Of a DNA stretch of 64,000 nucleotides, positions 33,592 to 58,900 are shown in pieces. The first letter of the stretch is position 1. Every line of letters begins with the position of its first letter. Where the stretch lies: the NCBI GenBank assembly GCA_965368975.1, contig CBDUPA010000012.1, forward strand, positions 83,540-147,539, given 5' to 3'. The notes under the pieces are model-generated. The model worked only from the letters and a program-made list of their open reading frames with translations, ran no database searches and was not told where the DNA came from. A program made the position numbers and the translations under genes. The DNA comes from an uncultured bacterium (lineage in GTDB: Bacteria; Acidobacteriota; Thermoanaerobaculia; Multivoradales; JAHZIX01).

Positions 33592-34695
33592 TTGGCTACC
33601 GGATCGGACCGTGAATCCGGTCCGGTAGCGGTACTCCTGAGCACCGTTTTCGCCCCATCGCCTGGGCAGCCCCCTGCCCCGGTATACACTAGAGGCGTGA
33701 AACAACCCGAGTCTCCGGAATCTGAGCATCCGGACCGTGATCCGGTCCCCGTACCGCCGGCTTCTCTGCAGGCTACTGCCGAGACGGAAGGCAACTACCC
33801 CGACCTGTACCTGGTTGCCGAGTGCGGCGAGCAGGATCAAGAGAAATTGGTGCGCGAACTGGTGGCCCCGATCGTGGCCGAGATCCGGGATCATCCGGAA
33901 CTCGAGTCGCTGTTCTTCGTGCGCATGAGCAAGCCTACCTGGCAAGTCCGCCTGCGTGTCGTCGGAGACTTGGAGTGGTTGCAGAACCGCTGCAGGCGCG
34001 TGATGTGCCTGCGTCTCGACGCCTTGCGCGGCCGGCGGGCGGTGCACGACTTCAGCCTGGGGCACTACGGGCGTGAGCTCGAGCGCTACGGCGGTGAAGG
34101 CGGCATGCGCATCGCCGAACAGCTGTACCACCACGACTCGCTCGCCTGCTTGGACCTGATCACCGCCGAGGCCCGCGGCCTGCTCGAACGTTCGCGGCGT
34201 GAGCTGGCGCTGCTCTACAGCGAGCGGCTGGCCAATCGGTTGGGCCTGCATGGCGAAGACCGCTCGCGCTTTTACCGCTACGGCTACCAGTGGACCTTCC
34301 AGACCGAGACCTGGGACCAGAGCGATGCCGACGCACTAGAAGAACGGTTCGAGCAACTGGAGGCCGGGCTGCGCTCCCTCTTTCCGCTGGGTGGCAAGGC
34401 ACCGCCCGAGACGGATCTCTGGGGCGGAGACGAGCCGGCGCGCGTTGGTGCCGGCCTGGCAGCGTCGCAAGAACCAGCGCTGGCACGGCTGCTCAAGGGG
34501 CACAGGGCGGGGCGCATCGGCGGTGATCTGGCCTACCTCGGCTGGTCCTACTGCCACCTCTTCTGCAACCGCCTGGGCATCGACCCGTCCGGCGAGGCGG
34601 TACAGCGCTACCTGATGCACCTGTACCACTACCGCGTCCGTGCCCAGGGCTCGCTGCCGGGGCCCTTGCTCACCGAAGCGGCCAGCGACACCTGA
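33592..34695 (+). CDS. LanB C-terminal (glutamate-elimination, SpaB_C / thiopeptide-type bacteriocin biosynthesis) domain protein
   Basis: LYLVAECGEQDQEKLVRELVAPIVAEIRDHPELESLFFVRMSKPTWQVRLRV... and LGHYGRELERYGGEGGMRIAEQLYHHDS fit the family pattern (FF-RY...H-RLR; Y-PE-ERYGG...AE-F--DS). The TTG start is uncertain; the N-terminal ~60 aa are Pro-rich. Confidence 0.7.
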   Translation: MATGSDRESGPVAVLLSTVFAPSPGQPPAPVYTRGVKQPESPESEHPDRDPVPVPPASLQATAETEGNYPDLYLVAECGEQDQEKLVRELVAPIVAEIRDHPELESLFFVRMSKPTWQVRLRVVGDLEWLQNRCRRVMCLRLDALRGRRAVHDFSLGHYGRELERYGGEGGMRIAEQLYHHDSLACLDLITAEARGLLERSRRELALLYSERLANRLGLHGEDRSRFYRYGYQWTFQTETWDQSDADALEERFEQLEAGLRSLFPLGGKAPPETDLWGGDEPARVGAGLAASQEPALARLLKGHRAGRIGGDLAYLGWSYCHLFCNRLGIDPSGEAVQRYLMHLYHYRVRAQGSLPGPLLTEAASDT

Positions 34696-34698
34696 ACG

Positions 34699-37464
34699 AT
34701 GGGGGACGGCTACCCCCGAGAGGCGGACTGCTGGCAGAGAGGGCCCCGCATCGCCCTCCTACGACTGGCGTTGCAACCCTGGCAGCGTCTGCAGGCTCTG
34801 CGCGCCGACGCGACCGTCGGGCACCTGGCCGTGGCCCGCCAGGCACAGGCCGAGCTCGACGCCCTCGTGCCGACGCTCGAGGCCGCACTGTTCACCGCCG
34901 CCGGTCCCAAGCGTCCCGCCGCCGGTCCCGTGGAGGCAGCGCGACGCCTGGCGTGCGTCGCGCTACGGCGGGCGGTGCACAATGGTCGGGAGTTGGACGC
35001 CTCGACACTCGGGAGCAGTGACCGCGACGGTGATCTGCAAGGGCAGCTGCAGCGATATAGCGAGCTGAAGGCTACTGTCGAGCGTGCCCGTGCCGCGGCG
35101 TTGCAGGCCTGCCAGGCCGAGTTGCCGCGGGCACGTCAGCACGTTCTCGACGCCAGCGCTGAACCGCTCCAGGCGGCGGCGCTAGCACTGGTCAGCCGAT
35201 CGCTGTTCCGCCGGCTGCAGCGTCTGCAGGCCGCAGCCGCACCCCATACTCAGGCCCGCGACGCCCAGACCCACGATACGCGTCACACCGTCGCCAAACT
35301 GCTCGCCTACCTCGACCGTGCCGCCAGCAAGACCAGCCCCAACGGCCTTTTCTGCGCCACCGCCGTCGCAACCTGGGGCGAGCGCCTGAACGTCCACCGC
35401 CTCGCTACGCCGCCGCGTGTCGATCTGCGCCTCAACGTCACCGAAGCGCGCAAACTCACCGCCCACCTCGGCTTCGGCCCGCAGATGGATGCCCTCGTGC
35501 GACCCCGTGTCACCACGACGCTGCATCGCCAATCCGCGGAGTCCGGCGAAGTCCTGACCTTCTGGCGCACAGCCTCGCTGCGTCGACCTGAGGACGACGA
35601 AGCTCTCCAGCGCCTGGGCGCACAGCCGATCGTCGACCTCTTCGTGCAACTGGCGGATGGTCGTCGCTCCGTTCCCGAACTCCTCCTGGCCGTCGCCAGC
35701 GCGGCGGCAGAGCACGGCATGGAAGTCAGCGTCGAGCAATTGGAGCCCTTCTTCCGCCAGCTCGTCGACGCCGGCCTGCTGCACGCCGAGATCGAGCTGC
35801 CGTACGGCTGCGGCCGCCCCCTGCGCGCGTTTGCGCATCGAGTTGAGGAACCGGCTGTCGACGGGGCCCCAAGGATTGCCGAGCTCGAAGCCATCGAAGC
35901 CGACCTCGACGCCGTCAACGCCACGCCCATCGAGGCCGCCGCTGCCGTCCGTCTGCCCGCCATCCTCGACGACCTGGCACGGCGTCTCGACGCCCAGGCA
36001 GCCACCCTGCCCGAACTGGCCCGGCCGCTCGTGCGCGATGAACTCTTCCGTCTCGACGCGGCCCTCGACGCGGCACCCGGTCGGCAAACCACCCTGCCGT
36101 GTCCCTGGCGCGACGCCCTGCAGCCCACCGTCGACGGCTACGCGCGCCTGTTCGCCTCGATGTACCCGTCGTCAAACTATCGTCAGCGCCTGGCGTCCGC
36201 CTTCCTGGAGCACTGGCCCGCGGACACCGACATCCCCCTGCTCGACCTCTACCATCACTTCCAACCACCACCCCCGGATTCCCGCGTACTCGACTTCCCG
36301 TGCCCGAGCAGCGATGTCGATAGCCAGCCGTACCAAGCCTGGCAGCAAGCCCGCGCCCTGCTCGTCGAGCTGGCCAGACAGGCCAGGGCGGCCGGGGAGC
36401 ACGAAGTCCGTCTCGACGACACCGCCTGGCATGCCTTGACGCATCCGCTTTCCGACCCAACCGGTCCTTCTGAGACGCTGAAGTGGACCGCCGGCGTTCT
36501 CTTCCAGCCCGTGCTCGCCAGTTCCGCGAACCGAAAGCAGCAGAACCGGCTCGTCCTCAACGCCCTCTTCTCGGGCACCGGCGTTGCCTTCGCCCGCTTT
36601 GCCGACCTGCACCCCGAAGTCGAGCCTGAGCTGCGCCGGCAACTCCGTGCCTCGGACTCTGCCGAAACCGCCCAAGTCCCCATCGTCGCCGAGCTGACCT
36701 ACAACCACTGGGGCCGCACCGCCAACGCCGGCCTGCGTCCACGACTCCACGAGTGGGAACTCGAACTCCCCGGTGACCGCGCCTCCGATGCTGGCTACGC
36801 CGCTGGCAAGGTCCTCACCCTCGCCGACCTCACCCTGCGCTACGACTCCACCGAGCAGCGCTTCCACCTGCGTCGCATCCAAGACGGTCGCCAGGTCCTC
36901 CCCGTTCTGTCGAGCGGCGTCAGCCCCGAAGGCCTGGTGGCGCTGCTGGTGGCGATCGGGCGTCAAGAGCAGCAGCCCCTTGGTCTGCTCCCCGGCTTCG
37001 CCTGGCCGGAAGAAGAGCTGGAACAAGACTTCCCAGACGGCGTTGAGACCTGGCCCCGCTTCGTCCGAGCTGTTTCTTCGGAGGCAGGCACTGACGAGAT
37101 CGACCTCGAAATCGTCCTCTGGCGCCGCCGCTGGCGCTTCCCCCGCGCCACCATTCCCAAACCCCCAAAGTCCCGCCCCGGCGACGACGCTGACCTCCAC
37201 CTCGCTACCTACTTCGCAGCCGTCGACACCTGGCGCCACCACCACCTCCTTCCTCGCCACATCTACCTCCACACCGCCACCGTCCGCAAGCCCACCCACG
37301 TCGATCTCGAATCCCCCCTCCACGTCGAGCTGCTGCGTCGACGCCTGGCGTCAGAGAAGGGAGATGTCTACGTCACCGAAGCGCTGCCGGGGCCAGAGGG
37401 TCTGTGGTGGGGCGGTGGAGACGAGCGCTCGAACGTCGAGGTGCTGGTGCAGTTGGGGGTGTGA
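34699..37464 (+). CDS. lantibiotic dehydratase (LanB) N-terminal glutamylation-domain protein
   Basis: 921 aa. VAKLLAYLDRAASKTSPNGLFCATAVATWGE matches the conserved LanB '...R-TPFGLFAGV..G' block. PELLLAVASAAAEHGMEVSVEQLEPFFRQLVDAGLLHAEIELP matches the typical winged-helix-like leader-binding region pattern. Confidence 0.75.
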   Translation: MGDGYPREADCWQRGPRIALLRLALQPWQRLQALRADATVGHLAVARQAQAELDALVPTLEAALFTAAGPKRPAAGPVEAARRLACVALRRAVHNGRELDASTLGSSDRDGDLQGQLQRYSELKATVERARAAALQACQAELPRARQHVLDASAEPLQAAALALVSRSLFRRLQRLQAAAAPHTQARDAQTHDTRHTVAKLLAYLDRAASKTSPNGLFCATAVATWGERLNVHRLATPPRVDLRLNVTEARKLTAHLGFGPQMDALVRPRVTTTLHRQSAESGEVLTFWRTASLRRPEDDEALQRLGAQPIVDLFVQLADGRRSVPELLLAVASAAAEHGMEVSVEQLEPFFRQLVDAGLLHAEIELPYGCGRPLRAFAHRVEEPAVDGAPRIAELEAIEADLDAVNATPIEAAAAVRLPAILDDLARRLDAQAATLPELARPLVRDELFRLDAALDAAPGRQTTLPCPWRDALQPTVDGYARLFASMYPSSNYRQRLASAFLEHWPADTDIPLLDLYHHFQPPPPDSRVLDFPCPSSDVDSQPYQAWQQARALLVELARQARAAGEHEVRLDDTAWHALTHPLSDPTGPSETLKWTAGVLFQPVLASSANRKQQNRLVLNALFSGTGVAFARFADLHPEVEPELRRQLRASDSAETAQVPIVAELTYNHWGRTANAGLRPRLHEWELELPGDRASDAGYAAGKVLTLADLTLRYDSTEQRFHLRRIQDGRQVLPVLSSGVSPEGLVALLVAIGRQEQQPLGLLPGFAWPEEELEQDFPDGVETWPRFVRAVSSEAGTDEIDLEIVLWRRRWRFPRATIPKPPKSRPGDDADLHLATYFAAVDTWRHHHLLPRHIYLHTATVRKPTHVDLESPLHVELLRRRLASEKGDVYVTEALPGPEGLWWGGGDERSNVEVLVQLGV

Positions 37465-37638: not shown

Positions 37639-40362
37639 GTGGTCGTATGTCTCTTGGAGACAGTCGTTCGAAGAGCAGTGACAGCTGCTGCGATTCTGAC
37701 GCTTGTCGTGGGACTGGGCTTACAGGCACAGTCAGGGTCTGCTAACGCCCCGAAAGGGGCCCAGTTTGTCTTCGTGATCGATGATTCTGGCAGCATGGGG
37801 CAGCCGGAACACGGGCTTACAGACCCCGATCGGCTGGCTGTGTTCGCGGTGCGTGCTCTACTGGGTGTGCTCGACGACCGGGACTGGGCGACAGTTGTTC
37901 GTCTCAATGGCCCTCGCGAGGGTGAAGATCCGCTATCGCTGGCGCCTTTGGGAGATGCGCACCGAACCCGGCTGATGGAGGTTCTGCAGCTGGACGCGGA
38001 ACTGGCGCGATATGAGGGGGAGTACACGCCTTGCCGAAGGGCTCTACAGGCCGTCAAGCGGATGCTCGAAGGGTCGGATAGGCAGAACATTTCCCAAGTC
38101 GTGATCTTCCTTTCGGATGGCAAGTGCACACCGGTAACGCAAGGGGAAGATCGTGTCCTTGACTTTGCTGAAGGTTTGCGCTCGGCTCAGGGAGAGAATC
38201 CGCGCCTTCAGTTCTACTTTCTGCGATTCGAAGGGCAAGAGTACACTCCGGGGCTGGAGCAGCTGGCCGAGAACACCGGAGGTTCGGCGATCGAGGTCCG
38301 ACAGGGGGATCCGACGCGGATCCTCTACACCTTTGCGCAAGCGCTGGCCCGCTCGCAGGGCTACGAACCTCTGATCCTCAGTCCGAGCGTGCGGCAGCTG
38401 CCGGCCTACCGGGGGGCCAACCGAGTCCGCTTGCTGGCAATTGCGCGCGGCGATCAGGGAGAGCCGTTGGCGGTGCGCGTCCGGCGTCGTCAAGGGGGCG
38501 GAGTCGATACGGTGCCGATCGAGCAGGGCACCCACAGATTCCCGGGGCAACAGGGGTATCGCTTCGCTTCGGTGCAGTATCGGCCGGTCGAGCAGCCGGT
38601 GGAGGTGGAGGTGGTCGGAGCCGGCGAGGATTGGGAGGTCGTTGCCTTGCCGGAATATCACCTGGCGGTCAACCTGGCCTTGCGTCGTGGTGGCTGTGAG
38701 GAGGAAGGCGAGACCCTGGGTGGCGTCACGCCAGCCGGAAGCGGATTGTGTGCGGTGATCGAGCTAGTCAATGAGGAAGGGCGCGTGGTGGGCAAGGAGG
38801 TGACCACCGGGCAGTTACAGGCTTCCTTGCGTCAGACAGTCCCGGGTGGTTCCGAGCCTCGGCTGATTTCGGCAACGGAAGCTTCCTCGGATCTCGCCAG
38901 CTTCCGCTTGGATATACAAGGGCTCGAGAGCGGTCACCACGAGTTTCAGGGGCAGGTCCAGTTGGGGACCCAGGTTGACGATCCCCGAGTTCTGACGGGC
39001 ACTGCGCGAACACTGCAAGCAGTAGATCTGGCGATCCGGCCGGTTCCGAGTGAGCTGCGACTCGATCCAATCCAGCCCGGTGAGGTCAGCCGTCAGAGCC
39101 TGGAGATCCATGGCAACTTCGCGCCGTCGGAAGCCGTGGTCTCCTTGGAAGAGGGAGAGAATCTGCCGAGCTGCGTGACCTTAAGCTTTGACGGCAAGGA
39201 GCTTGGAGAGACCATCTCGATTCGTCCAAAGCAGGGCTACTGGGTCGAATTTCGGGCGGCCAAAGCCTGCGGCGAGACGCAAGGTCGACAGGTCGATGCG
39301 CGCCTGCGCCTGGAGCTTGCGGGACTCGATTCGATTGCCATACCGGTAACCTTTCGCTTGGAGAACAACGCCCAACGCCGAGATCCGACAACAGTGGAAT
39401 TGCGGGCAGGTACGACGAGAGAGGTCGATGTAGCAATCCCCGCGGCCTGGAATTCTTTCGACGTACAAGCAACCGCCGCCGAGAATGCGCAGGGCGAAAC
39501 CTATGAGTTGCTGCGCGCTGAGATTCTGAGCGAGCCTCCGATTCCCTCTGAAGACGGTGAAGCCTCAGGTCGCCAGCGAGTCGAGGGATTGACCGCTGAA
39601 CAGGGACTGTCTCTGCAACTCGTAGCTTCGGGCTGTTGCAGGTCCGGGACCTACGCCCTCGATGTCTACCTGTGGCCCAAGGTCGGTGCCACGACCATCG
39701 TACCGCTGGTCGTCGAAGTCGAGGCCAGCTGGTGGACCTGCTACGGCTCTTGGGTGCTCGCGGGGACCATCGGTCTCTTGGCTGGCTTGCTGGTGTTCTA
39801 TGTCCTGAGCATGTTCAGTCATACCACCTTGCTCGACCGAGACCAGCTGAGCGCTCGTCTAGTGCCCTTACGCTGGCCTCGCCATCGCGGCGCACCGCAA
39901 CCCGCCAGCAATCGCAGTAGTGACCGAGAAGAGGTCGAAGACATTGTGCACAGTGAAGTCTCTAGCCTGCAGCGGGTGCGGAGCTGGCTACGAGCCAATC
40001 CCCTGGTCTTTGGCTCGCCTGGGCGAGAGTACAGAGAGACGGCCGAACTCTTTTTGACCACTGATCTCGGGCTAACCTCGATTTCCCTGGTATTGGAGCG
40101 GGATGTCGTCGACCGACTCCGGACGAGCGAGGAGATCGACACTTGGGAAGAGGGGAGGCTCTTCGCGCGCGCCGGCAATCCCGTCTCCTTCTTTGTCGTG
40201 CGCGGTCCGAGCAAGAAAGTTCAGCAGATGACTCCGGAAGGCTGGTTCGGCAAGGTCGATGACCTGACTGTCGAGCAGGTTTCCAAAGGACAAAGATTCA
40301 TTCGTCAGCTTTCCATCAAAGAGCGCAAAGAAGGCGCTGTGGCCGGGTGGGTTCTGGAATAG
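37639..40362 (+). CDS. exported von Willebrand factor A (vWA) domain protein with single C-proximal TM helix and cytoplasmic tail
   Basis: Signal/anchor: RRAVTAAAILTLVVGLGLQAQS. vWA with MIDAS: FVFVIDDSGSMGQ...; VVIFLSDGKCTP. About 500 aa of beta-rich repeats follow. TM helix: WWTCYGSWVLAGTIGLLAGLLVFYVLSMF. The tail is ~200 aa. Confidence 0.75.
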   Translation: MVVCLLETVVRRAVTAAAILTLVVGLGLQAQSGSANAPKGAQFVFVIDDSGSMGQPEHGLTDPDRLAVFAVRALLGVLDDRDWATVVRLNGPREGEDPLSLAPLGDAHRTRLMEVLQLDAELARYEGEYTPCRRALQAVKRMLEGSDRQNISQVVIFLSDGKCTPVTQGEDRVLDFAEGLRSAQGENPRLQFYFLRFEGQEYTPGLEQLAENTGGSAIEVRQGDPTRILYTFAQALARSQGYEPLILSPSVRQLPAYRGANRVRLLAIARGDQGEPLAVRVRRRQGGGVDTVPIEQGTHRFPGQQGYRFASVQYRPVEQPVEVEVVGAGEDWEVVALPEYHLAVNLALRRGGCEEEGETLGGVTPAGSGLCAVIELVNEEGRVVGKEVTTGQLQASLRQTVPGGSEPRLISATEASSDLASFRLDIQGLESGHHEFQGQVQLGTQVDDPRVLTGTARTLQAVDLAIRPVPSELRLDPIQPGEVSRQSLEIHGNFAPSEAVVSLEEGENLPSCVTLSFDGKELGETISIRPKQGYWVEFRAAKACGETQGRQVDARLRLELAGLDSIAIPVTFRLENNAQRRDPTTVELRAGTTREVDVAIPAAWNSFDVQATAAENAQGETYELLRAEILSEPPIPSEDGEASGRQRVEGLTAEQGLSLQLVASGCCRSGTYALDVYLWPKVGATTIVPLVVEVEASWWTCYGSWVLAGTIGLLAGLLVFYVLSMFSHTTLLDRDQLSARLVPLRWPRHRGAPQPASNRSSDREEVEDIVHSEVSSLQRVRSWLRANPLVFGSPGREYRETAELFLTTDLGLTSISLVLERDVVDRLRTSEEIDTWEEGRLFARAGNPVSFFVVRGPSKKVQQMTPEGWFGKVDDLTVEQVSKGQRFIRQLSIKERKEGAVAGWVLE

Positions 40363-40408
40363 AGCTCGAGGCCGGTCCGAAAACAAAAGCAAAATTGCGA
40401 GGTTGAAC

Positions 40409-43400
40409 ATGGCCAGAGATCGTAAGTTGATCGTCGAAGAACTCCTGACCAAGCCCAGCGGCGTGTGTCCGATGCTGTTCGTTGGTATGGGAGGAGCGGG
40501 TTGCAGGATGGTGGAGCGGATCGCCGGTCATCTCCGAGGTCGACCGGATTATAAAGAACGCTTCAAAGATCTGGTCAAGTTCGCCATGATCGACAGCAAT
40601 GTCAATGATCTGGAAGGGTATCGAGAAGTGGCCAATGCAACCTTCCTGATCAGTGACTTCGAGAAGGAGGAGTACGCCAATCTGGCCTCTGGCAAGAAGT
40701 TCCTGGAACCGCAGCAGTACTTTACACAGTGGGTGCCGTCGGACTATCGCTTCCGCTCCGGAGATACCTCGGGGGCTGGCCAGATTCGCATCGAATCTCG
40801 TCTGGGTGTTTACTACCAGATGAAGCACAAACAATTCGTGCCCAGATTCCGCAGTCTCTTGGAGAGTCTGAAGTCGCACGAGAACGGACATCGGAGGTTG
40901 GACTCCGACGAGATCCGGATCGTACTCTGCTATTCCGTCGCCGGCGGAACCGGCTCCGGTTGTCATCTGCCAGTGGCCTATATGTTGCGGGATCAGGCCG
41001 ACGACCTGGGCAAGCCGACTTTGATCGGTGTTGCGGTGTTGCCGGCGGTCTTCGAGGACAAGGTCGGCGTCAATAAGGATGGTGTTTTTGCCAACGGTTA
41101 TGCAGCTCTGAAGGAAACCGAGCATTTGATGAAGCTCGGTGCCCCGGATTCTCGGTTCTTTCCCGAGAAGGGGATCGAGTTTCACTACAACCCCGCCGAT
41201 GAATCGAAGCGAACGGTTCACGCGCGTCCCTTCGACTTCCTTTATCTGATCGACAAACCCGAGTCGTTCAGCGTTCCCGAGCCGGTGGATGCTGCGGCGG
41301 ACGGACTCTATCTGCAGTTCTTCTCGCCCCTCTACGGGGCCCAGCTCTCCGACTACGACAACTACACGCAGTACCAGAGGTTCTTGGTACCGGAAGACTT
41401 CGAAGAGGGAGGCATTCCGGGCTTCTCGACCTTCTATGGCTCCTACGGTTGCGCAGTGCTCCTGGTGCCGGTTCCCGGCCTGGTGGAGTATTGCAGCCAG
41501 GCTGCCGCCCTGGCGTTGATTCGGGCCAGCTTCATGGGGGATATCCCAGCGGATCCGATGTACGAGCCCTTGCGCATCGACAGCGACCGCTTCTATGAAG
41601 TCAAGGAGCGCGACGACGAGGATGCGCAGCTCTTCCAGGCTGCGGATATCCCCAGTCAGCCTCAGAAAGAGCGTCGCCGAAGGTTGTTCGATCGGCTTTT
41701 TGCCAAGCGGGTGCGCCTGCTGGCGGCGTGTGAGTACCGGGCTGACCGCGACGGCCGGTTCCGCGGCATCTTCCGGCACGGCCACTATCTCGGAACCATC
41801 CCGAAGCTCGACGGTAGCGCCGTCATGGACATGGAGCGGTTCGACGAAGAGGCCGAGCGCGAGCGCGAGCTGGTCGGTGGCAAGCTCAGCGTTTCGATCG
41901 GCGGCATCATCCTGCCCGCCTTGGTCGGACTGCCGGGGGACGACCCCGGACTCCTGCAACGGGCGCACCAAGCGATCAAGAACTTCAAGGTCGACAAGCC
42001 GCGTCGTGACATGCGGGTCAACGAACTACGAGCGCGCGGCGACGCGTGGCGGACGATGTTGAGGGATGAGGGGCGTCAACGCCTGCGCGATGGCTACAGC
42101 GATGGCACGGTGCAGGTGCCTGGCATGGAGAGCCTGGTGCAAATGGACTTCCTGCGCCGGGAGGCGGGAGAGGTCGAGCTGGCGGCCAAGCGCTACGCGG
42201 TGCTCTCTCTGCTCGACGCGGTGGATTGGGAACAAGCGCCGGAAGACGAGGCCGAGTCCAACTTCGATGTCCAGGAGAAGAAGCCCACGGCCAAGGCCGA
42301 CGATGCCTTGATCGAGCACGTAATCAACCAGGCTCGGGATCTGGCCTTCCGCGACATCCGCCGCGAGTTCCTGTCCCAATTGGGCGAGTTGCGCGAGGCG
42401 CTGGAGAGCATCGCCGACGAGATGCGGGAGCTGGAGCAGGGGTCGACCAACCTGGAGCGCGAGTACGGTCGTCGCCTGGAGCGCCTGCAGTTCCAGGGCG
42501 AGGAGTCGGCCAATCAGTACATCCTGGACGCCGAGGCGTTGCAAGGGGAAGACAATCGACGCTTCTGGGACTTCTACTTCGAGGACAAAATCGCAGCTCT
42601 GCCCGAGTTGTCGCTGAGCAATGCTCGCGTGCAACAAATCCTGAGTGACACCGTCATCGAGCTATCGCAGCGTACGGGCCGCAGCACGAGCACGTCACGC
42701 CTGGAGAAACTGTTCACCGCGTTGCGCAAGTATGCCCAGGACTTCCTCGACAAGCGGATCGGCGGTGATCGTCACTCACCGGACCTGGAACGTCGCGAAG
42801 GGTTGACGCTGTCGGATGCGCTGGAGCTGGAGATCACCTACCGAGCGCTCTATCGCAGCTACGCCGAAGCGATCCAGGGGCAGGGGGACAAGGTCATTCG
42901 TCGCATTCTCTCCGAATACCGCGCCCTGCCCGACGAGAAGCAGATCGATTTCGCGGAGCCCAAGCACCAGGACTATCTGCGCGACAAGATCAAGCGGGTA
43001 GTGCAGGAGAAGGCATCCCTGCTCTGTGTCTACAACCACTCACGCGATCAGCATGGTGGCGTGCGGCCAAACCATATCTTCCTGGCCGCGATTGATGAGA
43101 ACTTCAAGAACAGCAACATCGAACAGGCGCTGAAAGATGCCGACATCGATGATCTCAAGTGGGTGTCCGGCAGCTGGCACAACGCCAAAGAGATCGTCTT
43201 CTACCGCGCGGTGTTGAATGTTCCGCTTTACACCTTCGGTCGGCTCGACCAGATGAAGCACCACTATGAAAGCTTCCGCAGTCTGAGGCGGCGCTCGAAG
43301 GTGCTGCACATCGACAAGAACTGGGAGGGTGACCAGCTCTGTGACCTGGATCCGGGCACGCTCAAAGAAGTGCATCGTCAACTAACCGTGCGCGACCAGA

Positions 43401-44278
43401 TCATCAACTTCACCTCGCTGCTGAGCAGCAAGCATCCGCGCATCGATGAGAAGGGGGCTACCTGCATCTTGCGTCGGCGCGGGCGCTACTATCTGCTGGA
43501 TCCGACCCTCAGCAAGATACCCGATGAGCACGATCCTGGTTCGACCTTGTTGGGCGACGCCCTGGCCCGAGCCATCGAACGCTTGCCCGAGGTGCTCGAT
43601 GCCGAGCGCGTGAACTTCAGCGAGTACCGGGATTCGCTGCACGGTGTACGCAATGGCATGGCCCCGTGGCTGCTGGGCAAGATCTGCAGGTTACCTTTCC
43701 AGTGGCGCCTGCAATACGAAGATTTGAGCAACCACTATGGGCATCAGCGTTCGATCGAGCAGCAAGAGATTCTGCGTGATCTGAAAAACTCCTACGAGAA
43801 GCTCAATGAAGCGCTGGACTCTCTGCTCGCGGAACTGCGCAATCGTCGACTCGAGAGTCGGACCCGCAAGGAGGACTTCACGGTCTACGCTCGCCGCTTG
43901 ACCGCCCAGCAGGCCAAGGATGCACTGGATCAGAGCATCAAGGTGCTGGCCAACTACAGCGAGGCCTGGAGCAAGGTCGAGGACAGCTCGCAGGTCCCGG
44001 ATACCCCCGAGTCGTTCGTGGATCTCTTCCAGCCTCTGGACCATGGCAAGTTGCAGAGCATGCTCGACAAGTTGCACAAGCCGATCCTTGATGACGATGA
44101 TGACGATGAGGAAGGCGATGGCCCCGGCCCAGCCAAGCCCCCAGCGGAGCCGGTCAAGCGCCCAGCGGAGCCAGACAAGCCCTCAGCGGAGCCAGACAAA
44201 GACTCGGCGGAGCCAGACGAAGACTCTGCCACTGAAGAGCCTTCGGAACCAGATCCCACTGAAACCGAAGGGTCATGA
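40409..44278 (+). CDS. giant tubulin/FtsZ-superfamily GTPase (Tubulin_2 / FtsZl-1-like) with long coiled-coil region and acidic repeat tail
   Basis: MLFVGMGGAGCRMVERI (G-box/T1-like), GDTSGAGQIRIESRLG (T3-like), and IRIVLCYSVAGGTGSGCHLPVAYML with the tubulin signature AGGTGSG at nt 40940-40960. GAGG lies 6 nt upstream of ATG 40409. The C-terminal ~800 aa are helical or charged. Confidence 0.7.
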   Translation: MARDRKLIVEELLTKPSGVCPMLFVGMGGAGCRMVERIAGHLRGRPDYKERFKDLVKFAMIDSNVNDLEGYREVANATFLISDFEKEEYANLASGKKFLEPQQYFTQWVPSDYRFRSGDTSGAGQIRIESRLGVYYQMKHKQFVPRFRSLLESLKSHENGHRRLDSDEIRIVLCYSVAGGTGSGCHLPVAYMLRDQADDLGKPTLIGVAVLPAVFEDKVGVNKDGVFANGYAALKETEHLMKLGAPDSRFFPEKGIEFHYNPADESKRTVHARPFDFLYLIDKPESFSVPEPVDAAADGLYLQFFSPLYGAQLSDYDNYTQYQRFLVPEDFEEGGIPGFSTFYGSYGCAVLLVPVPGLVEYCSQAAALALIRASFMGDIPADPMYEPLRIDSDRFYEVKERDDEDAQLFQAADIPSQPQKERRRRLFDRLFAKRVRLLAACEYRADRDGRFRGIFRHGHYLGTIPKLDGSAVMDMERFDEEAERERELVGGKLSVSIGGIILPALVGLPGDDPGLLQRAHQAIKNFKVDKPRRDMRVNELRARGDAWRTMLRDEGRQRLRDGYSDGTVQVPGMESLVQMDFLRREAGEVELAAKRYAVLSLLDAVDWEQAPEDEAESNFDVQEKKPTAKADDALIEHVINQARDLAFRDIRREFLSQLGELREALESIADEMRELEQGSTNLEREYGRRLERLQFQGEESANQYILDAEALQGEDNRRFWDFYFEDKIAALPELSLSNARVQQILSDTVIELSQRTGRSTSTSRLEKLFTALRKYAQDFLDKRIGGDRHSPDLERREGLTLSDALELEITYRALYRSYAEAIQGQGDKVIRRILSEYRALPDEKQIDFAEPKHQDYLRDKIKRVVQEKASLLCVYNHSRDQHGGVRPNHIFLAAIDENFKNSNIEQALKDADIDDLKWVSGSWHNAKEIVFYRAVLNVPLYTFGRLDQMKHHYESFRSLRRRSKVLHIDKNWEGDQLCDLDPGTLKEVHRQLTVRDQIINFTSLLSSKHPRIDEKGATCILRRRGRYYLLDPTLSKIPDEHDPGSTLLGDALARAIERLPEVLDAERVNFSEYRDSLHGVRNGMAPWLLGKICRLPFQWRLQYEDLSNHYGHQRSIEQQEILRDLKNSYEKLNEALDSLLAELRNRRLESRTRKEDFTVYARRLTAQQAKDALDQSIKVLANYSEAWSKVEDSSQVPDTPESFVDLFQPLDHGKLQSMLDKLHKPILDDDDDDEEGDGPGPAKPPAEPVKRPAEPDKPSAEPDKDSAEPDEDSATEEPSEPDPTETEGS
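44141..44224 (+). repeat. 4 x 21-bp in-frame tandem repeat (PAEPVKR/PAEPDKP/SAEPDKD/SAEPDED) inside the tubulin-like gene
   Basis: CCAGCGGAGCCGGTCAAGCGC / CCAGCGGAGCCAGACAAGCCC / TCAGCGGAGCCAGACAAAGAC / TCGGCGGAGCCAGACGAAGAC. Confidence 0.85.
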
Positions 44279-53801: not shown

Positions 53802-55967
53802 TCAAACCCGCGACGCCACCCACTCGCTGATCCTCCCGTGCGCAGTCACCAGCGCCGACTTGCGGGCACGCGTCAGCGCGACGTAGAGGAGGGCGCGTTC
53901 CATGAGTTCGGTTTCGCGCTGGATGGCTCGGTCTTTGGAGTAGCGCACGCGGGTGCGCCAGGGCATGTTGTCGTCGCTCAGGCCGGCGACGATCATGTGG
54001 TCGTACTCTAGGCCTTTGACGCGGTGCATGGTGGCGACGCGTAGGCCGGGTTTGTCGGCGTCGTCGCTGGTGTCGCGGCCCAGACGCAGGGTGGGGACGC
54101 CTCGGTCTTCTAGGGCTTCGGCGTAGCGGTCGGCGAGGGCGTTGGTGCGGGCGACGAGGCAGGCGTGGGTGGTCTCGCGGTCGGTGAGCCATTGGGCGAT
54201 GGCTTCGACTTCGTCGTCGAAGGTGGGTAGTTCGAGGGTTTGGGGGACCGCGCCGTGGGTGAGGGAGCGGTAGCCTTGACGCGAGTCGGCGGTGCCGTCG
54301 AGGTCGTCGAATTCTTGGTTCTCGAGCACGGCGACGGCGTAGCGGCGGATTTCGTCGGTGGTGCGGTAGTTGATGCGCAGGCGGCGGCCGCGACCGCGGA
54401 TGTTGACGCCAGCGTGGGAGAGCACGACGCGCTTACGGTAGATGCGCTGGTGGCCATCGCCGACCAGGAAGAGGTCGTCCGGCTTTTCGGGGACGGCGGC
54501 GCGCAGCAGGCGGAAGGCGTTGGTGCTCATGTCTTGCGCTTCGTCGACGACGATGGAGCGTAGCGCCAGCTGTACGCGGCCGGCTTCGAGCAGCACGCAG
54601 GCGTCGAGCAGGGCGTCTTCGGGTTCGCGCAGGCCGTGCTTGTCGAGCTGGTGGCGGTATTCTTCGAATACCGGCCAGATCGCCTTGCGCTGGGCGCGAC
54701 TGAGGCGCTCACCGCGACCGGCGCGGCTGGCTCGCTTGTAGTCTTTCCAGCTCTGGCAGCCTTGCGCCTGCACCACGGCTTCCCACTCGTCGCGGTAGAA
54801 GGACTCGGAGACTTCGAGGTGGGTTGCGGGATCGGATGCGCTGCTGGGCGCCAGCGTGAGGGCGGAGTCCCAGGAGTCCTTCAGCGGGCCACGGCTCGGA
54901 TCCCAGTACTTGATCCGGTATTCGTAGCCGGCGCGCAGCAGCAGGTCACGCACCCATTTGTCGATGTTGACGACATCGATGCGTCGCAGCGCTTCGGGTG
55001 GGCACAGGCGCGCCAGGTTGGCGCGGATGTCGTTGGCCAGGTTCTTGGTGAAGGTGGTGAAGAGGATGCGATCGCCGGGGGCGACGAAGACGTTCTGCGC
55101 CAGGTAGGCGGCGCGATGCATGGCGACGACGGTCTTGCCGGTACCGGCGCCGCCGAGCACGCGCACGGGACCGTTCCAGCTACGCTCGACCAGTTTGCGC
55201 TGGCTCGGGTGCAGGAAGGTGCGCCACTTTTCGAGCGGCGCGTCGAGCATCGCCTGCAGGCTGGCGTCGTCCTCGACGACCACGAAACGCCGCTTGGTGG
55301 CGTCGCGTTCGAGGGCGCGGTCGATGTCCGAGGTGTCGATGTCGGGCTCGGCGGACACCGCCATGGCCTGTTCGACTTCTTCCAGCGACTCGCCCTCGCT
55401 GAGCCAGTAGAGGGCTTCGAAAGCCTCGGGCGGCAGCTGCGCGGAAAGGGCCTCCAGTTCGTGGGCCCTGCGCAGCGCGCGCACCTCGTCGAGCTGGGGC
55501 TCGGGGACGCCGAGGCGCAGGAGTTCGCGGTCGCGGATGGCGTCGAAGAGGCGCGTTTCGACGGTGCCGGCACTTGCTGCCGGCGTCTCTGCCCCGTCCC
55601 GGGGCGACGCCGTCGCTTGGCGGCTGAAGACCTGCAGGGCGCCGGTTTCCGGGTGCACCGAGACGCTCTTGTGCTCGGCCCAGCGCATGGCTTTGTCGTG
55701 GTGGTCGATCCACAACAGCAGGTAGGTGTTGCCCTTCTCGGGCTGACGTACGATGGCTCGGTACTCCAGGTCGATGCGCACGGTGCGTAGACGCGGATCG
55801 GAGAAGGTGCTGATGGGCTCGTAGTTGATGCTGGACTGCGTGGGGTCCTGACGGAATTTGCGCAGGAACTTGCTCACCTTCTTCTGCTGTGCGCGCGGGA
55901 TGAGCGCGAAGGCATCGAAGAATTCCTCGTAGATCGCGACTTTGAAGGTTTGCTCGTAGGCCATCAC
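53802..55967 (-). CDS. UvrD/Rep-family SF1 helicase with RelE/ParE-fold-like N-terminal domain
   Basis: 721 aa. Walker A: VRVLGGAGTGKTVVAMHRAAYL. Walker B: SIVVDEAQDMS. C-terminal motifs: RVATMHRVKGLEYDHMIV, LLYVALTRARK. The N-terminal ~100 aa (KVSKFLRKFRQDPTQSSINYEPI...RTVRIDLEYRAIVRQPEKGNTYLLLWIDHHDKAM) follow the RelE/ParE toxin pattern. ATGA overlap with the upstream gene. Confidence 0.8.
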   Translation of the reverse strand: MMAYEQTFKVAIYEEFFDAFALIPRAQQKKVSKFLRKFRQDPTQSSINYEPISTFSDPRLRTVRIDLEYRAIVRQPEKGNTYLLLWIDHHDKAMRWAEHKSVSVHPETGALQVFSRQATASPRDGAETPAASAGTVETRLFDAIRDRELLRLGVPEPQLDEVRALRRAHELEALSAQLPPEAFEALYWLSEGESLEEVEQAMAVSAEPDIDTSDIDRALERDATKRRFVVVEDDASLQAMLDAPLEKWRTFLHPSQRKLVERSWNGPVRVLGGAGTGKTVVAMHRAAYLAQNVFVAPGDRILFTTFTKNLANDIRANLARLCPPEALRRIDVVNIDKWVRDLLLRAGYEYRIKYWDPSRGPLKDSWDSALTLAPSSASDPATHLEVSESFYRDEWEAVVQAQGCQSWKDYKRASRAGRGERLSRAQRKAIWPVFEEYRHQLDKHGLREPEDALLDACVLLEAGRVQLALRSIVVDEAQDMSTNAFRLLRAAVPEKPDDLFLVGDGHQRIYRKRVVLSHAGVNIRGRGRRLRINYRTTDEIRRYAVAVLENQEFDDLDGTADSRQGYRSLTHGAVPQTLELPTFDDEVEAIAQWLTDRETTHACLVARTNALADRYAEALEDRGVPTLRLGRDTSDDADKPGLRVATMHRVKGLEYDHMIVAGLSDDNMPWRTRVRYSKDRAIQRETELMERALLYVALTRARKSALVTAHGRISEWVASRV

Positions 55968-58900
55968 TCAGTCTCCTCTGCTAGCGCCTCTGCTAGTACC
56001 TCGGCCAGCGGCGAGACGTCGACCGTCCCGTCGGGCTCGAGCGCCAGGTCTTCCAGGTAGAAAAGTCTCCAGTCCGCCGCCGGCTCGCCGACGGCCCAGG
56101 CGCTGTCGGCGTACGAGGTGAGCGCGACGCGCGCGGTGTGCCACACCAGTTCGGCCTCGCTCCACACGGTATCGCGCTGGTTCGGTATGTCGTCACCGAC
56201 CACCGGCTCCACGATGCCCGCGGCGATCATGGCCTCGGCGGCGCCTCGGTAGGCGTCCTCGATCTCGTCGAGCTGTGTCCAGATTGCATCCTCGCCTTCC
56301 GGGCCGTGCTCGGCGAGGCTGCGCAGCTGAGCGATGCCGCTGTAGTCGCCGACGTCCGATGTGGTGACGAAGACGATGTCGTCGATCGCGCGCAGCCACT
56401 GGAAGAGACGCAGGAAGCCACGCCACGCCCGGTGCATCTGCGGCAGTTCGCGCCGATCTTCGCGGTCGTCGAGTTCGCGGTCGTCGAGGCGGGCGAGCAC
56501 GGTCACTCGCTGACCATCGTGGGCGGCCATCCACTCGATCTGCCGCGGCTCGCCCCAGGTGCCGCTGGCGAGGGCGCGGGGCCTCGTCGCGGCGAGCTGG
56601 TCGCGTAGGGCTTCCGGTGCCGCTTGCCGCGCGAACTCGGTCCAGGCGCGTTGCTGACTCGGCAGCGTGGCTTCGAGTCGAGGTACCAGCGCCGCCGCCG
56701 CCAGGTCGCGCCACGGCAAGCCGTTGGCATCTTGGAGGTCCTGCAAGAGCCAGCGGAAGGTCGACTGTTGCGGCAGGTCGGTGAACTGGGTGAGGCCCAG
56801 CTGCTGGAGAGCCTTCTTGAAGTCACCCAGGTCGAGCGCCGCCAGTTCGGGCGCGGGCTCGACCTCGGTGGATCTCGTCAGCTCGGCTTCCAGATCGTCC
56901 CAGGTGAAGGTCCACACGTCCCAGCCCGCGGCCAGCAGTGCCTGGCGCTGGCGCAGGTCCTGCCCCAAGCGATCTTGGTGGAACTGCCAGCCGTCGAGGA
57001 AGATGGCCAGACGACGATCGGTGGCGGCGCTGGCCGGTCGCAGCACGAAGTCGATCGAGACGCCGATGCCGCCGGTCTCGGCCCTCGGCGGTTCGACCTG
57101 CGGCTCGATACGCCATTGGGCGTCGCCCAGCGTCCACAGCCAAGCATCTTTGATGCCGATCGGGATCCGCTTCAGCTGGGCTGGGTGCTGTTCGTTGCCG
57201 GCGCGTAGTAGGGCTTCGAGGAAGCGGGCTTCGAGGGCACTGTCGAGCAGGCCGGAGTGGCTGATGTCGCCCAGGCGTTCGATTTCCTGCACGCTGTCGG
57301 CGCGCGCCAGGATGCGGCGCAGGATCTCGGAGGCCGTGCGCGCCGAGGTGTCGCGCATCTCGCGACTGTTGCGGTAGCCGAAGAGGCAGCGATAGCAGCC
57401 TTCCACCAGCTTGCCGGCTCGGTTCGTGGTGCCCCAGCAGGCGCAGCCCTCGATCCGTTGCAGGCTCGCCTCGAGAGCTCGGAACAGGGGTATCGTGGCA
57501 TCGGCATCGGGCGTGACCAGCTGTTTCAGAAAGCCGGTGCCGCCGGGCACGGAGTCGAAGAGCACCAGGTACTGGCGGCGCAGCGTGCTGTCGGGAGTCG
57601 GTTCGGAGTAGACGGTGGTGCGCAGGTGGTCGACGCTGCCGGCGAAGTAGCTCTCCAGCCCCAGCTGCAGGGCGGCGGTGAACGAGTTGAGCTGGCGCGT
57701 GCCGGCGAAGTCGGTGATCGGCAGCAGCAGGCGCAGGGCCTCGGACTCGAGCTGGCGGTAGAGATAGACGCAGGACTCGATCTGCTCGTCCGTGTCCTTG
57801 CGTCGCGACGGGCAGGACAGCAGGTGGTCGGTCTTCTCACCCTTGCGCGTCGCCTGCACCTTGCCGCAGCGTGCGCACAGCTCGAAACCCTGGCGCACCA
57901 TGGCTCGGCCGGCGATGGTGTTGCGCGCGCCCAGGTCGGAGGGTTCGCCGAAGTTGATGTCGCGAAAGGTCACCCGTGCGCAGTACTCGAAGCCGAAGGG
58001 GTGACGGTCGTCGTCCAGCCGCCAGGCGCGCGAGGAACTGCGAGTGTCGAAGGTGGGCAGGATGTCGCGCTCGAAGAAGCGCGGCTGGCGTTCGTCGCGA
58101 TCGTCGCGAATCCGGGAGTTGCGGTCGGATTCTCTGGCGAATACTTGCTCCAGCTTCAGCAGGCGCTGGGTCTGGCCGCTGTCGCGCCAGTCGGCGGCGC
58201 CGCAAACCGGGCAGGCCGTGTGCGCATCGCCGGTGTCGATCGACTCGGCGTGGCTGCACTCGGGGCAGAAGCGCCAGGTCTCGAGCTTGGAGGACGAGAG
58301 ATCGACGGCGTCGATGCCCACGCGTCGTCCCGAAGCGTAGAACTCGGCGCCAGGCGCCAGCTCGGCCAGGGCGCTCGACGGCGAGCGCTTGTACTCGTAG
58401 GTCCAGGTTTCGTAAGGACTCCCCTGGGCTGGAGGGTGCTTCTTGCGCCGCCAGATCACCGAGCGCAGTCGCACCGCCGACTCCGGGAAGGCGTAGTTGG
58501 GCAGCAGGCCCTGGTCGGTGAGGAATTCGAGCGTCGAGCGCTGGTTGATCGCCTTGATCAGGCCGATCAGGGCCTCTTTCTCGGCTTCGCGCTCGTCGAT
58601 CTGCTCCTGGTGGTCCTTGTCGCGGGCCTCGGTGGCGCGTAGCACTTTGAGTTGCTTGCGCAGGGTCTCTACGTTGGCGCGGTGTGCTTCGCGCTGCTTG
58701 CGTTCCTTGTGCAGGGTGTCGAGCAGGCGGCTTTCGAGGGTCGCCTCGATGTGGTGCAGGGCATCTCGAGCTTGCGCCTTCTCGGGCTGCTCGCTGTCGA
58801 GTTCAGCTTTGGCCTCCGCGCCGAGCAGGAAGCGCTCCAGGTGGGCGGCGGTGGGCGGTCCGATCTCGTCCTCGAACATCTCGAGGAATTCTCGCAGCAG

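Follow-up and report, generated by a model that had tools for sequence, protein, structure and literature searches.

A conserved operon encoding an FtsZl1 GTPase, a second tubulin-fold protein and a putative membrane-anchored YprA/MrfA-like helicase in Acidobacteriota and Myxococcota

A 64,000-nucleotide (nt) stretch of contig CBDUPA010000012.1 (GenBank assembly GCA_965368975.1, positions 83,540–147,539; hereafter the window), from an uncultured bacterium of the Multivoradales (Acidobacteriota; Thermoanaerobaculia), carries four large co-directional genes, g1 to g4, whose products very probably belong to a conserved, multi-protein, envelope-spanning system of the vWA-FtsZl1 class, with parts assigned to the periplasm, the inner membrane and the cytoplasm. 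The predicted periplasmic parts are the vWA domain of g1, with its metal ion-dependent adhesion site (MIDAS), and, in other genomes, a lipoprotein (g5). The transmembrane (TM) helix of g1, a TM hairpin in g3 and a polytopic domain in g4 are predicted to lie in the inner membrane; the parts predicted to face the cytoplasm are the tail of g1, g2 as a GTPase of the FtsZl1 family, g3 as a pseudo-GTPase with a tubulin fold, and the superfamily 2 (SF2) module of g4, which is of MrfA type. The open reading frames (ORFs) are as follows.

37639–40362, + strand: g1, 907 amino acids (aa), exported vWA protein
40403/40409–44278, + strand: g2, 1291/1289 aa depending on the start, active-type tubulin-like GTPase
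44275–48330, + strand: g3, 1351 aa, membrane-anchored pseudo-tubulin
48311–52258, + strand: g4, 1315 aa, membrane-anchored helicase-like ATPase

The gap between g1 and g2 measures 46 nt when ATG 40409, a codon with GAGG six bases to its 5′ side, is taken as the g2 start; g2 and g3 overlap in an ATGA (44275–44278) and g3 and g4 by 20 nt (48311–48330). Promoter and terminator scans gave matches no more frequent than chance. An earlier interpretation of this DNA, made from the letters and translations alone (the sequence-only reading), had proposed a single operon; both the ORFs and the junctions were confirmed, and gene order, with stop and start codons that overlap, is kept in ~40 independent loci. 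High-GC DNA yields many long chance ORFs, dozens of them in the ORF list of the window, but the probability that g1 to g4 are spurious, or merely happen to lie side by side, is close to nil: each of the four proteins has tens to more than 100 homologues with E = 0, the catalytic motifs are conserved and the structure models are confident, while conservation of the same order at ~40 loci excludes a chance neighbourhood.

For comparison, 48 loci (cited below by L number) were assembled by looking up genomic contexts and by scanning the GTDB species representatives. Where a locus was long enough to reveal it, the order was nearly always g1-g2-g3-g4 (tblastn table), and co-occurrence of the four families elsewhere, on which the proposal of a new system depended, was borne out in two phyla. 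Hosts are Thermoanaerobaculia including Ca. Multivoradales (Acidobacteriota), Bradymonadales (Bradymonas sediminis, Lujinxingia, Persicimonas) and other Myxococcota, with the loci nearest to the window copy labelled Thermoanaerobaculia or Ca. Multivoradales. The g4 family is small, with 24 members in a word-indexed search of 5.8 billion proteins and 122 relatives in an exhaustive search of 1.84 billion representatives; the g3 search returned 126 relatives. Identity to the window copy declines from g2 (49–80%), the most conserved gene of the operon, through g3 (36–62%), g4 (31–52%) and g1 (31–48%) to g5. Neighbour-joining (NJ) trees of g2 and g3 have the same two major clades and share most subclades.

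By its profile match g2 is an unambiguous member of Tubulin_2/FtsZl1, the most divergent branch of the tubulin superfamily: it aligns to positions 1–355 of the 356 in PF13809 with 140.8 bits (cut-off 27; E = 8.8e-41). FtsZl1 proteins have an FtsZ-like domain at the N terminus, then an extended coiled coil and an alpha-helical domain at the C terminus. In g2 the tubulin-like domain appears to lead into a long, charged and probably helical region (aa ~360–870 are charged and helix-prone in a crude composition scan), beyond which a C-terminal alpha-helical domain and a disordered, acidic tail are predicted. The T1 loop (FVGLGGxGC, for the family pattern GGxG) and the T4 loop (AGGTGSG, for GGGTG(S/T)G) are both conserved in 35 orthologues, in agreement with the GTPase with an intact tubulin signature recognised in the sequence-only reading. 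Family profiles of g2, g3 and g4 found nothing significant among PDB sequences.

40946–40966, + strand: T4-loop tubulin signature AGGTGSG of g2 (aa 180–186), from the translation; conserved in every aligned orthologue

In g3, a tubulin/FtsZ-fold domain with large helical insertions is followed by a TM hairpin and a conserved ~330-aa cytoplasmic C-terminal domain. Pfam gave no usable match (Tubulin_2, E = 0.022 only). As modelled by AlphaFold (aa 1–940, 62-sequence alignment; predicted local distance difference test, pLDDT, 79.8; predicted template modelling score, pTM, 0.68), the protein has the fold of a tubulin/FtsZ GTPase domain. The family keeps a T1-like GxGRFG, and a conserved GDMSEPF occupies the position of the T4 signature; judged by these motifs, g3 is probably GTPase-inactive. 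It had been described as a paralogue-like protein with the signature lost and two TM helices, and this description stands, with the term ‘paralogue’ restricted to the level of the fold because sequence profiles of g2 and g3 align over the T1 loop only. Paralogy at the level of sequence was rejected (hhalign, just 23 columns at T1, 1.4% probability). TM helices of g1, g3 and g4 were called by hydropathy scan; the loop of the g3 hairpin is short, which would place both large domains of g3 on the same, cytoplasmic, side. A PADLOC match of g3 to LeoBC (E = 3.8e-5) lies in the coiled-coil/TM region and was treated as compositional.

47098–47235, + strand: TM hairpin of g3 (aa 942–960 and 969–987), from the hydropathy scan

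The last gene of the window operon, g4, encodes a polytopic membrane domain and a cytoplasmic part made up of two RecA-like domains, a winged helix, a beta-rich domain and an MZB-like domain without zinc cysteines.

48311–49264, + strand: polytopic membrane domain of g4 (aa 1–318), five to six TM helices, from the hydropathy scan
49673–49699, + strand: Walker A of g4, APEGSGKTT (aa 455–463); GxGK[ST] in nearly all of the window’s clade
49988–50011, + strand: Walker B/motif II of g4, VVVDDVES (aa 560–567); conserved across the family
51794–51820, + strand: MZB/DUF1998-like core of g4, FDLHQGGDG (aa 1162–1170); motif conserved in orthologues

Pfam matched DEAD (E = 2.7e-7), with no Helicase_C match and no MZB (PF09369) match at E ≤ 0.1. 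In the structure model of aa 321–1265 (pLDDT 75.4; pTM 0.81), which includes a RecA2-like domain, a winged helix, an OB-like domain and a DUF1998 domain come after the SF2 core, as they do in MrfA, and the best structural match is this repair helicase (a 3′–5′ DNA helicase), along all its domains. The membrane-anchored YprA/MrfA-type helicase lobe predicted from the translation was therefore recovered. The DUF1998-like domain holds by fold and by its D..GG.G motif, but Pfam MZB is unmatched and the zinc cysteine cluster is missing, no C-terminal cysteine being conserved in the g4 family; in the relative P0256 the same D..GG.G motif precedes a CRCRDGCPWC cluster absent from g4. Motif II reads DDVE rather than DExH, and motif III is not recognisable in the alignment. 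Lacking the Pfam MZB match, the zinc site and DExH, g4 is a divergent offshoot of the YprA/MrfA lineage and not a regular member. A close relationship to the window’s own DruE homologue was also considered and rejected (hhalign probability 4.8%).

The plan of g1 comprises a signal/anchor (aa 1–31), a vWA domain (aa 44–215), a beta-rich periplasmic region, a TM helix (aa 706–724) and a ~180-aa cytoplasmic tail. Pfam matches to VWA_2 (E = 1.4e-5) and VWA (E = 1.1e-3) both fall slightly short of the Pfam cut-offs; VWA is nevertheless matched by 13 of the 14 family members (best E = 1e-7), and the MIDAS residues are invariant among orthologues (DxSxS at 48–52, with D48, S50 and S52; T130; D160), upholding the prediction of an exported vWA/MIDAS protein with one TM helix. 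The g1 profile gave weak matches only to PDB sequences (E 0.03–0.5), all of them vWA proteins. Positive residues follow the last TM helix of both g1 and g4, which argues for a cytoplasmic location of the g1 tail and of the g4 helicase part. An orthologue of g1 lies 5′ of g2 in most loci that extend upstream; six lack it, mostly from Lujinxingia and Myxococcales, and it is missing from the Lujinxingia loci.

Several Thermoanaerobaculia carry an extra upstream gene that resembles solely the TM helix and cytoplasmic tail of g1 (aa ~650–866). This gene suggests, by sequence resemblance, that the tail could be a reusable docking module. At all five loci below the order is tail-like gene, o303-like gene (see below), g1.

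L013, 1944–2525: g1-tail-like extra gene
L014, 1878–2360: g1-tail-like extra gene
L036, 1609–2307: g1-tail-like extra gene
L037, 1937–2467: g1-tail-like extra gene
L045, 1812–2477: g1-tail-like extra gene

The conserved unit normally has five genes rather than the four originally described. In almost every other locus g4 is followed by g5, a lipoprotein gene of ~340–535 aa that overlaps the g4 stop by 4 nt and encodes a lipoprotein signal such as LFVTGC, LLCGC or LLVGC. It is present in 26 of the distinct loci compared (examples below) and cleanly missing from the window, where just 4 nt (52259–52262) separate the g4 stop from the end of a convergent gene, o303. As tblastn at E ≤ 10 found no remnant of g5 in the window, the gene was concluded to have been deleted there, and the window copy may be an incomplete or reduced version of the operon.

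L001, 13930–15138: g5
L003, 14266–15312: g5
L005, 13795–14970: g5

The two small ORFs beyond g4 are as follows.

52263–53174, − strand: o303, accessory gene; probable start Met31 (53084)
53095–53649, − strand: o184, small protein with a TM helix at each end

In o303 a TM anchor at the N terminus is connected by a Pro-rich linker to a conserved C-terminal domain, in which a G..SC motif is invariant; the protein had no match in Pfam, PADLOC or PDB. The G..SC precedes a conserved Arg and Gln-Arg, a spacing that recalls OmpA-like peptidoglycan-binding domains, but no match to these was found. At 12 or more other loci a homologue of o303 adjoins the operon, lying downstream in convergent orientation or upstream in the same direction: o303/o184 homologues are convergent and downstream of g5 in L001, L005, L011, L012 and L039, and o303 homologues are co-directional and upstream of g1 in Thermoanaerobaculia loci L013, L014, L036, L037 and L045. 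Operon-linked homologues of o184 occur in L005/L048, at 41% identity, and in L012, at 34%. The low-GC 52.2–53.7 kb stretch had been called an insert; since both of its ORFs (52263–53649) have homologues flanking the operon in other genomes, a foreign origin was rejected, and o303 and o184 are better described as two accessory genes of the operon neighbourhood.

The exhaustive search extended the g4 family to much more distant proteins. Its weakest matches are ~1000–1350 aa, with N-terminal TM helices (found in nearly all distant relatives scanned) and a DEAD-like domain, often with WHD_HRQ1 and a bona fide MZB and sometimes with a C-terminal M90 peptidase. hhalign links the g4 family to P0255 (97.5%, E = 6.8e-12, 461 columns), and in most of the sister group P0209–P0255, which comes from Tubulin_2 operons, Walker A reads GxGR[ST], a Lys-to-Arg change. 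Two distant relatives were looked up in their genomes (L049 and L051) and both lie in the same kind of operon.

L049 operon: 818-aa protein (faint VWA_2); Tubulin_2, 1118 aa; 869-aa protein; TM-MrfA-like-M90 protein, 1304 aa; 824-aa protein
L049, 9282–13196: g4-like gene
L051 operon: 792-aa protein (VWA_2, 0.001); Tubulin_2, 996 aa; 772-aa protein (weak Tubulin_2, 0.0021); TM-DEAD-MZB protein, 1247 aa
L051, 8256–11999: g4-like gene

The 869-aa protein of L049 is homologous to residues 552–1291 of g3 (99.2%, E = 3.5e-19); hhalign of the third gene of L051 against g3 or g2 was not significant. As L049 and L051 share this architecture, the association of FtsZl1 with a protein resembling g3 and with a YprA-like helicase anchored in the membrane is older than the family found in the window. 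The operon of L049 is followed 3′ by genes for an ADP-ribosylglycohydrolase and a TPR-guanylate cyclase, and that of L051 by HD_4 and RelA_SpoT genes. In the Allomeiothermus silvanus megaplasmid pMESIL01 (L052, 7363–13764), vWA, tubulin-like and hypothetical genes lie between two identical IS701-family transposase genes, beside brxL and a helicase gene; this three-gene cassette has the appearance of a mobile element within a defence island. Other distant (25% identical) megaplasmid Tubulin_2 cassettes are found among caspases and OmpA proteins.

Operons combining vWA and FtsZl1 genes were described by Makarova and Koonin in 2010 (PMC2875224), with protein kinases, a diverged P-loop GTPase and OmpA-family proteins as partners and no mention of a helicase or a second tubulin-fold protein. 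The window operon resembles this class in that g2 lies directly 3′ of g1, the vWA protein has an intact MIDAS, a signal sequence and a TM helix, other members are membrane proteins, and kinases adjoin L007 and L013. It differs in its constant partners, which are a pseudo-tubulin with a TM hairpin, a membrane-bound YprA-type helicase and a lipoprotein, with no P-loop GTPase; Pfam found no GTPase, kinase or OmpA domain in g1–g4, g5, o303 or o184, although such partners are frequent, not obligatory, in the 2010 class. Kaur et al. (2020; PMC7159879) classed tubulin-vWA GTPase-centric neighbourhoods as conflict systems. Their GAP1-N2 systems, from Firmicutes, Actinobacteria, Planctomycetes and Chloroflexi, contain a GAP1 protein, TRAFAC GTPases with zinc ribbons and proteins with FNIII repeats (PMC7159879). 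Two tubulin-domain genes with C-terminal helical/coiled-coil regions, as in the Firmicutes version of GAP1-N2, a membrane protein with an extracellular vWA domain and a predicted role near the membrane in a regulated cytoskeleton-like assembly are common to both, but no GTPase or FNIII domain was found by Pfam in the operon proteins, the operon comes from other taxa and its NTPase partner is of the SF2 helicase type.

g4 has the domain order of MrfA/YprA (RecA1, RecA2, winged helix, beta-rich/OB, MZB-like; PMC7797055), but differs in its polytopic N-terminal anchor, its DDVE motif and the lack of the four zinc cysteines, and, unlike MrfA and its defence relatives DrmA, DruE, DpdJ and ARMADA, it is not accompanied by an MrfB-type nuclease, a methyltransferase, DrmB or DruH. 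A 2025 survey of ~52,000 YprA homologues mentions no tubulin, vWA or transmembrane forms (bioRxiv 10.1101/2025.09.15.676423). Whether the locus matches a named defence system had been raised in the sequence-only reading; no PADLOC model does so for g1–g4 (no DrmA, DruE or Zor match; the best of all is the LeoBC match of g3). Literature searches found no paper on a system combining a tubulin with a membrane-anchored YprA helicase, nothing relevant on Bradymonas and tubulin or on tubulin-like proteins together with DUF1998 and phage defence, and no experiments on an FtsZl1 (Tubulin_2) system after the prediction of 2010. The claim of a new combination therefore holds for the helicase and pseudo-tubulin components but not for the vWA-FtsZl1 core, known in operons since 2010 (PMC2875224) and in tubulin-vWA conflict systems since 2020 (PMC7159879).

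The operon supplies the FtsZl1 family with defined, testable partners, namely an active/inactive tubulin pair and a putative membrane-fixed nucleic-acid motor. A pair of this kind with its own membrane anchor recalls alpha/beta-tubulin, and the YprA helicase family, otherwise found in DNA repair and in DISARM, Druantia, Dpd and ARMADA, gains a membrane-anchored, tubulin-linked branch. The partnership is robustly conserved and unexpected, and its cultured Bradymonadales hosts (Bradymonas sediminis, Lujinxingia) make a tubulin-like polymer in immunity, DNA handling or membrane remodelling directly testable.

In the mechanism proposed here, g2 and g3 would form a hetero-oligomer or polymer held at the membrane by the g3 hairpin, in the manner of alpha/beta-tubulin or of FtsZ with its membrane anchors, with GTP binding and hydrolysis by g2 as the assembly switch. 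Binding of a ligand to the vWA/lipoprotein module, or its disturbance, would be relayed through the cytoplasmic tail of g1 to the g2-g3 assembly, which would in turn position or activate the membrane-tethered g4 helicase; this would then engage DNA, single-stranded or forked, on the cytoplasmic side of the membrane. The envelope sensor, filament or switch, and motor of the sequence-only reading remain a plausible hypothesis. Zorya combines an envelope motor (ZorAB) with a helicase-nuclease (ZorC/ZorD), and offers a functional analogy: an envelope-sensing module, a long cytoplasmic structure and an SF2 nucleic-acid enzyme acting at the membrane. The two differ in that there is no homology, no PADLOC Zor match, no MotAB-like stator and no nuclease domain. 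We narrowly favour a conflict role, in which invading DNA would be handled at entry with Zorya-like logic, although mechanism and role taken together fall somewhat short of an even chance. That a tubulin-family heteropolymer of active FtsZl1 GTPase and membrane-anchored pseudo-GTPase, a membrane-bound YprA/MrfA-type motor and periplasmic vWA/lipoprotein receptors form an immune or DNA-gating device, with the cytoskeleton transmitting signal or force, and thereby a class of envelope-spanning machine not recognised before, is a little more doubtful.

Evidence consistent with a conflict role comes from some of the neighbours (DruE in the window, a caspase in L026, a Ser/Thr kinase-TPR protein in L013 and also L007), from distant FtsZl1 cassettes in the insertion sequence-flanked island beside BrxL and among caspases, from g4 relatives fused to an M90 peptidase and from the overall rarity of the system. 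Bell et al. (2025; bioRxiv 10.1101/2025.09.15.676423) recognise two branches of the YprA family, one for DNA repair and another that contains the known defence systems DISARM, Dpd and Druantia together with ARMADA, whose protective effect they demonstrate; for the remaining clades of the latter branch they predict defence. Kaur et al. (2020) connect tubulin-vWA systems with conflict, and Altae-Tran et al. (2023) reported vWA systems with tubulin-domain proteins near CRISPR loci.

Several observations weigh against this role. The NJ trees of g2 and g3 follow taxonomy, splitting into an Acidobacteriota clade that includes the window and a Myxococcota clade; L021, L023, L024 and L046, where g2 is 59–62% identical, have an upstream neighbour in common (33% identical), and two Lujinxingia species share both flanks. 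Shared neighbours and taxonomy-following trees together indicate long vertical inheritance and positional stability, which is atypical for defence genes. g2 is unusually conserved (at least 49% identity across phyla). The defence-island context claimed for the operon is not conserved: flanks at other loci are mostly housekeeping or metabolic, annotated genes including ankyrin, MacB, a TopoIII-RecQ fusion, PhoD, fatty-acid synthesis, IF3, a histidine kinase and a tRNA synthetase, and eight of ten further sampled neighbours have no defence match. No meaningful PADLOC or NCBIfam match was obtained for g1–g4, Pfam identified no nuclease, pore-forming or other recognisable effector domain in the core genes, and there are no relatives in IMG/VR viral contigs and no copies of the operon on PLSDB plasmids, which carry 25%-identical Tubulin_2 proteins only. 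The lower GC content noted for the operon is true of the window (~0.62, against 0.67 for the rest of the window, ~0.67–0.69 for the window average and ~0.53 for the 52–54 kb stretch), but across 27 loci operon and flank GC are equal on average (mean operon-minus-flank difference +0.005), and low GC was rejected as a general mark of horizontal acquisition. With its DDVE motif II and lost zinc site g4 remains a putative helicase, and the interactions among the operon proteins are all predicted.

Many of these features (the phylogeny, an upstream neighbour kept across deep Thermoanaerobaculia divergence, the Lujinxingia flanks, strong conservation of g2 and also of g3, mainly non-defence neighbours and the absence of PADLOC, plasmid and viral-contig relatives) also speak for a lineage-specific housekeeping machine. 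Here the tubulin pair would shape or constrict the membrane and the anchored helicase would clear or move chromosomal DNA there, a serious contender even if rather less than probable. FtsK/SpoIIIE has a polytopic N-terminal domain and a cytoplasmic DNA motor and works alongside FtsZ; the layout of g4 is analogous, and operon and division apparatus would both combine a GTPase of the tubulin family with a partner that anchors it to the membrane and a DNA motor whose N terminus is polytopic. g4 is, however, an SF2 helicase and not a RecA-like hexameric pump, g2 and g3 belong to the most divergent branch of the tubulin superfamily, and nothing ties the operon to cell division. The match of g4 to a repair helicase also fits housekeeping, and a role in membrane remodelling or envelope biogenesis was already proposed for FtsZl1 operons by Makarova and Koonin (PMC2875224). 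Such a machine is harder to reconcile with the restriction of this rare system to few lineages of two unrelated phyla, which requires at least one inter-phylum transfer, with components that are dispensable, since the window lacks the lipoprotein gene and Lujinxingia the vWA gene, and with the mobile or defence contexts of the wider FtsZl1 cassettes and the caspase, kinase and DruE neighbours at some loci.

Two further explanations concern what g4 does. In an unlikely one, its membrane domain would form or gate a channel through which the helicase pulls DNA or RNA in or out, by analogy with ComFA in competence, the vWA/lipoprotein module capturing the substrate outside the cell. The direct fusion of the helicase to a domain of five to six TM helices, which extends to distant relatives, and the existence of periplasmic vWA and lipoprotein partners would fit, and, as the cultured hosts are Bradymonadales, known predators, such a conduit might serve uptake of nutrient DNA in predatory or scavenging bacteria. 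Pfam and NCBIfam revealed no similarity to ComEC, ComEA, pilins or secretins, though, the g4 membrane domain matches no known channel family, the tubulin pair is left with no obvious role, and the Lys-to-Arg change in Walker A of many distant relatives argues against a processive motor as the ancestral function. That change in a large sister group, with the fused M90 peptidase, would instead suit a helicase-like module that does not act on nucleic acid but serves, in dependence on nucleotide, as a switch or scaffold for remodelling or anchoring the tubulin assembly or for regulating a partner enzyme, as would the DDVE motif II, the unrecognisable motif III, the missing Pfam Helicase_C and MZB matches and the lost zinc cysteines. 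Retention of the full MrfA domain set with good model confidence, among them the OB-like and MZB-like domains whose counterparts in MrfA hold the DNA, and conservation of the Walker A lysine throughout the window’s clade make this improbable as well.

Of the operon’s surroundings in the window, the 5′ side carries tgt, secD, secF, a transglutaminase-TPR gene and, immediately 5′ of the operon, a split lantibiotic-dehydratase pair (33592–37464, + strand) in the unusual order Lant_dehydr_C (367 aa) before Lant_dehydr_N (921 aa), with a 4-nt gap between the genes. On the 3′ side, all on the minus strand, o184 is followed by a separate Druantia-like cluster (53802–63900), on the opposite strand to the operon, of three genes linked by 4-nt overlaps.

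53802–55967, − strand: UvrD/GajB-like helicase gene, 721 aa
55964–62461, − strand: DruE homologue, 2165 aa (PADLOC DruE1, E = 3.6e-99), with DEAD, Helicase_C, MZB and MTES_1575 nuclease-like domains
62458–63900, − strand: type IIG restriction endonuclease-methyltransferase-like gene, 480 aa (E = 3.9e-76)

The DruE match confirms the Druantia-like neighbour that had been claimed, which was found at the window only; no other tubulin-operon locus has one.

The TopoIII-RecQ fusion (~1350 aa) is convergent on g5 in several Thermoanaerobaculia and joins Toprim/topoisomerase IA to DEAD, Helicase_C, RecQ_Zn_bind and HRDC domains; Topo III and RecQ are usually separate partner proteins.

L003, 15309–19367, − strand: TopoIII-RecQ fusion
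L008, 15796–19860, − strand: TopoIII-RecQ fusion
L045, 19788–23813, − strand: TopoIII-RecQ fusion

In the complete 7.5-Mb chromosome of a ‘delta proteobacterium’ (L040, 1–14074) the g2 match ends at ~3111 and g3 starts at 10001, and the ~7 kb between these otherwise adjacent genes may be an insertion into the operon.

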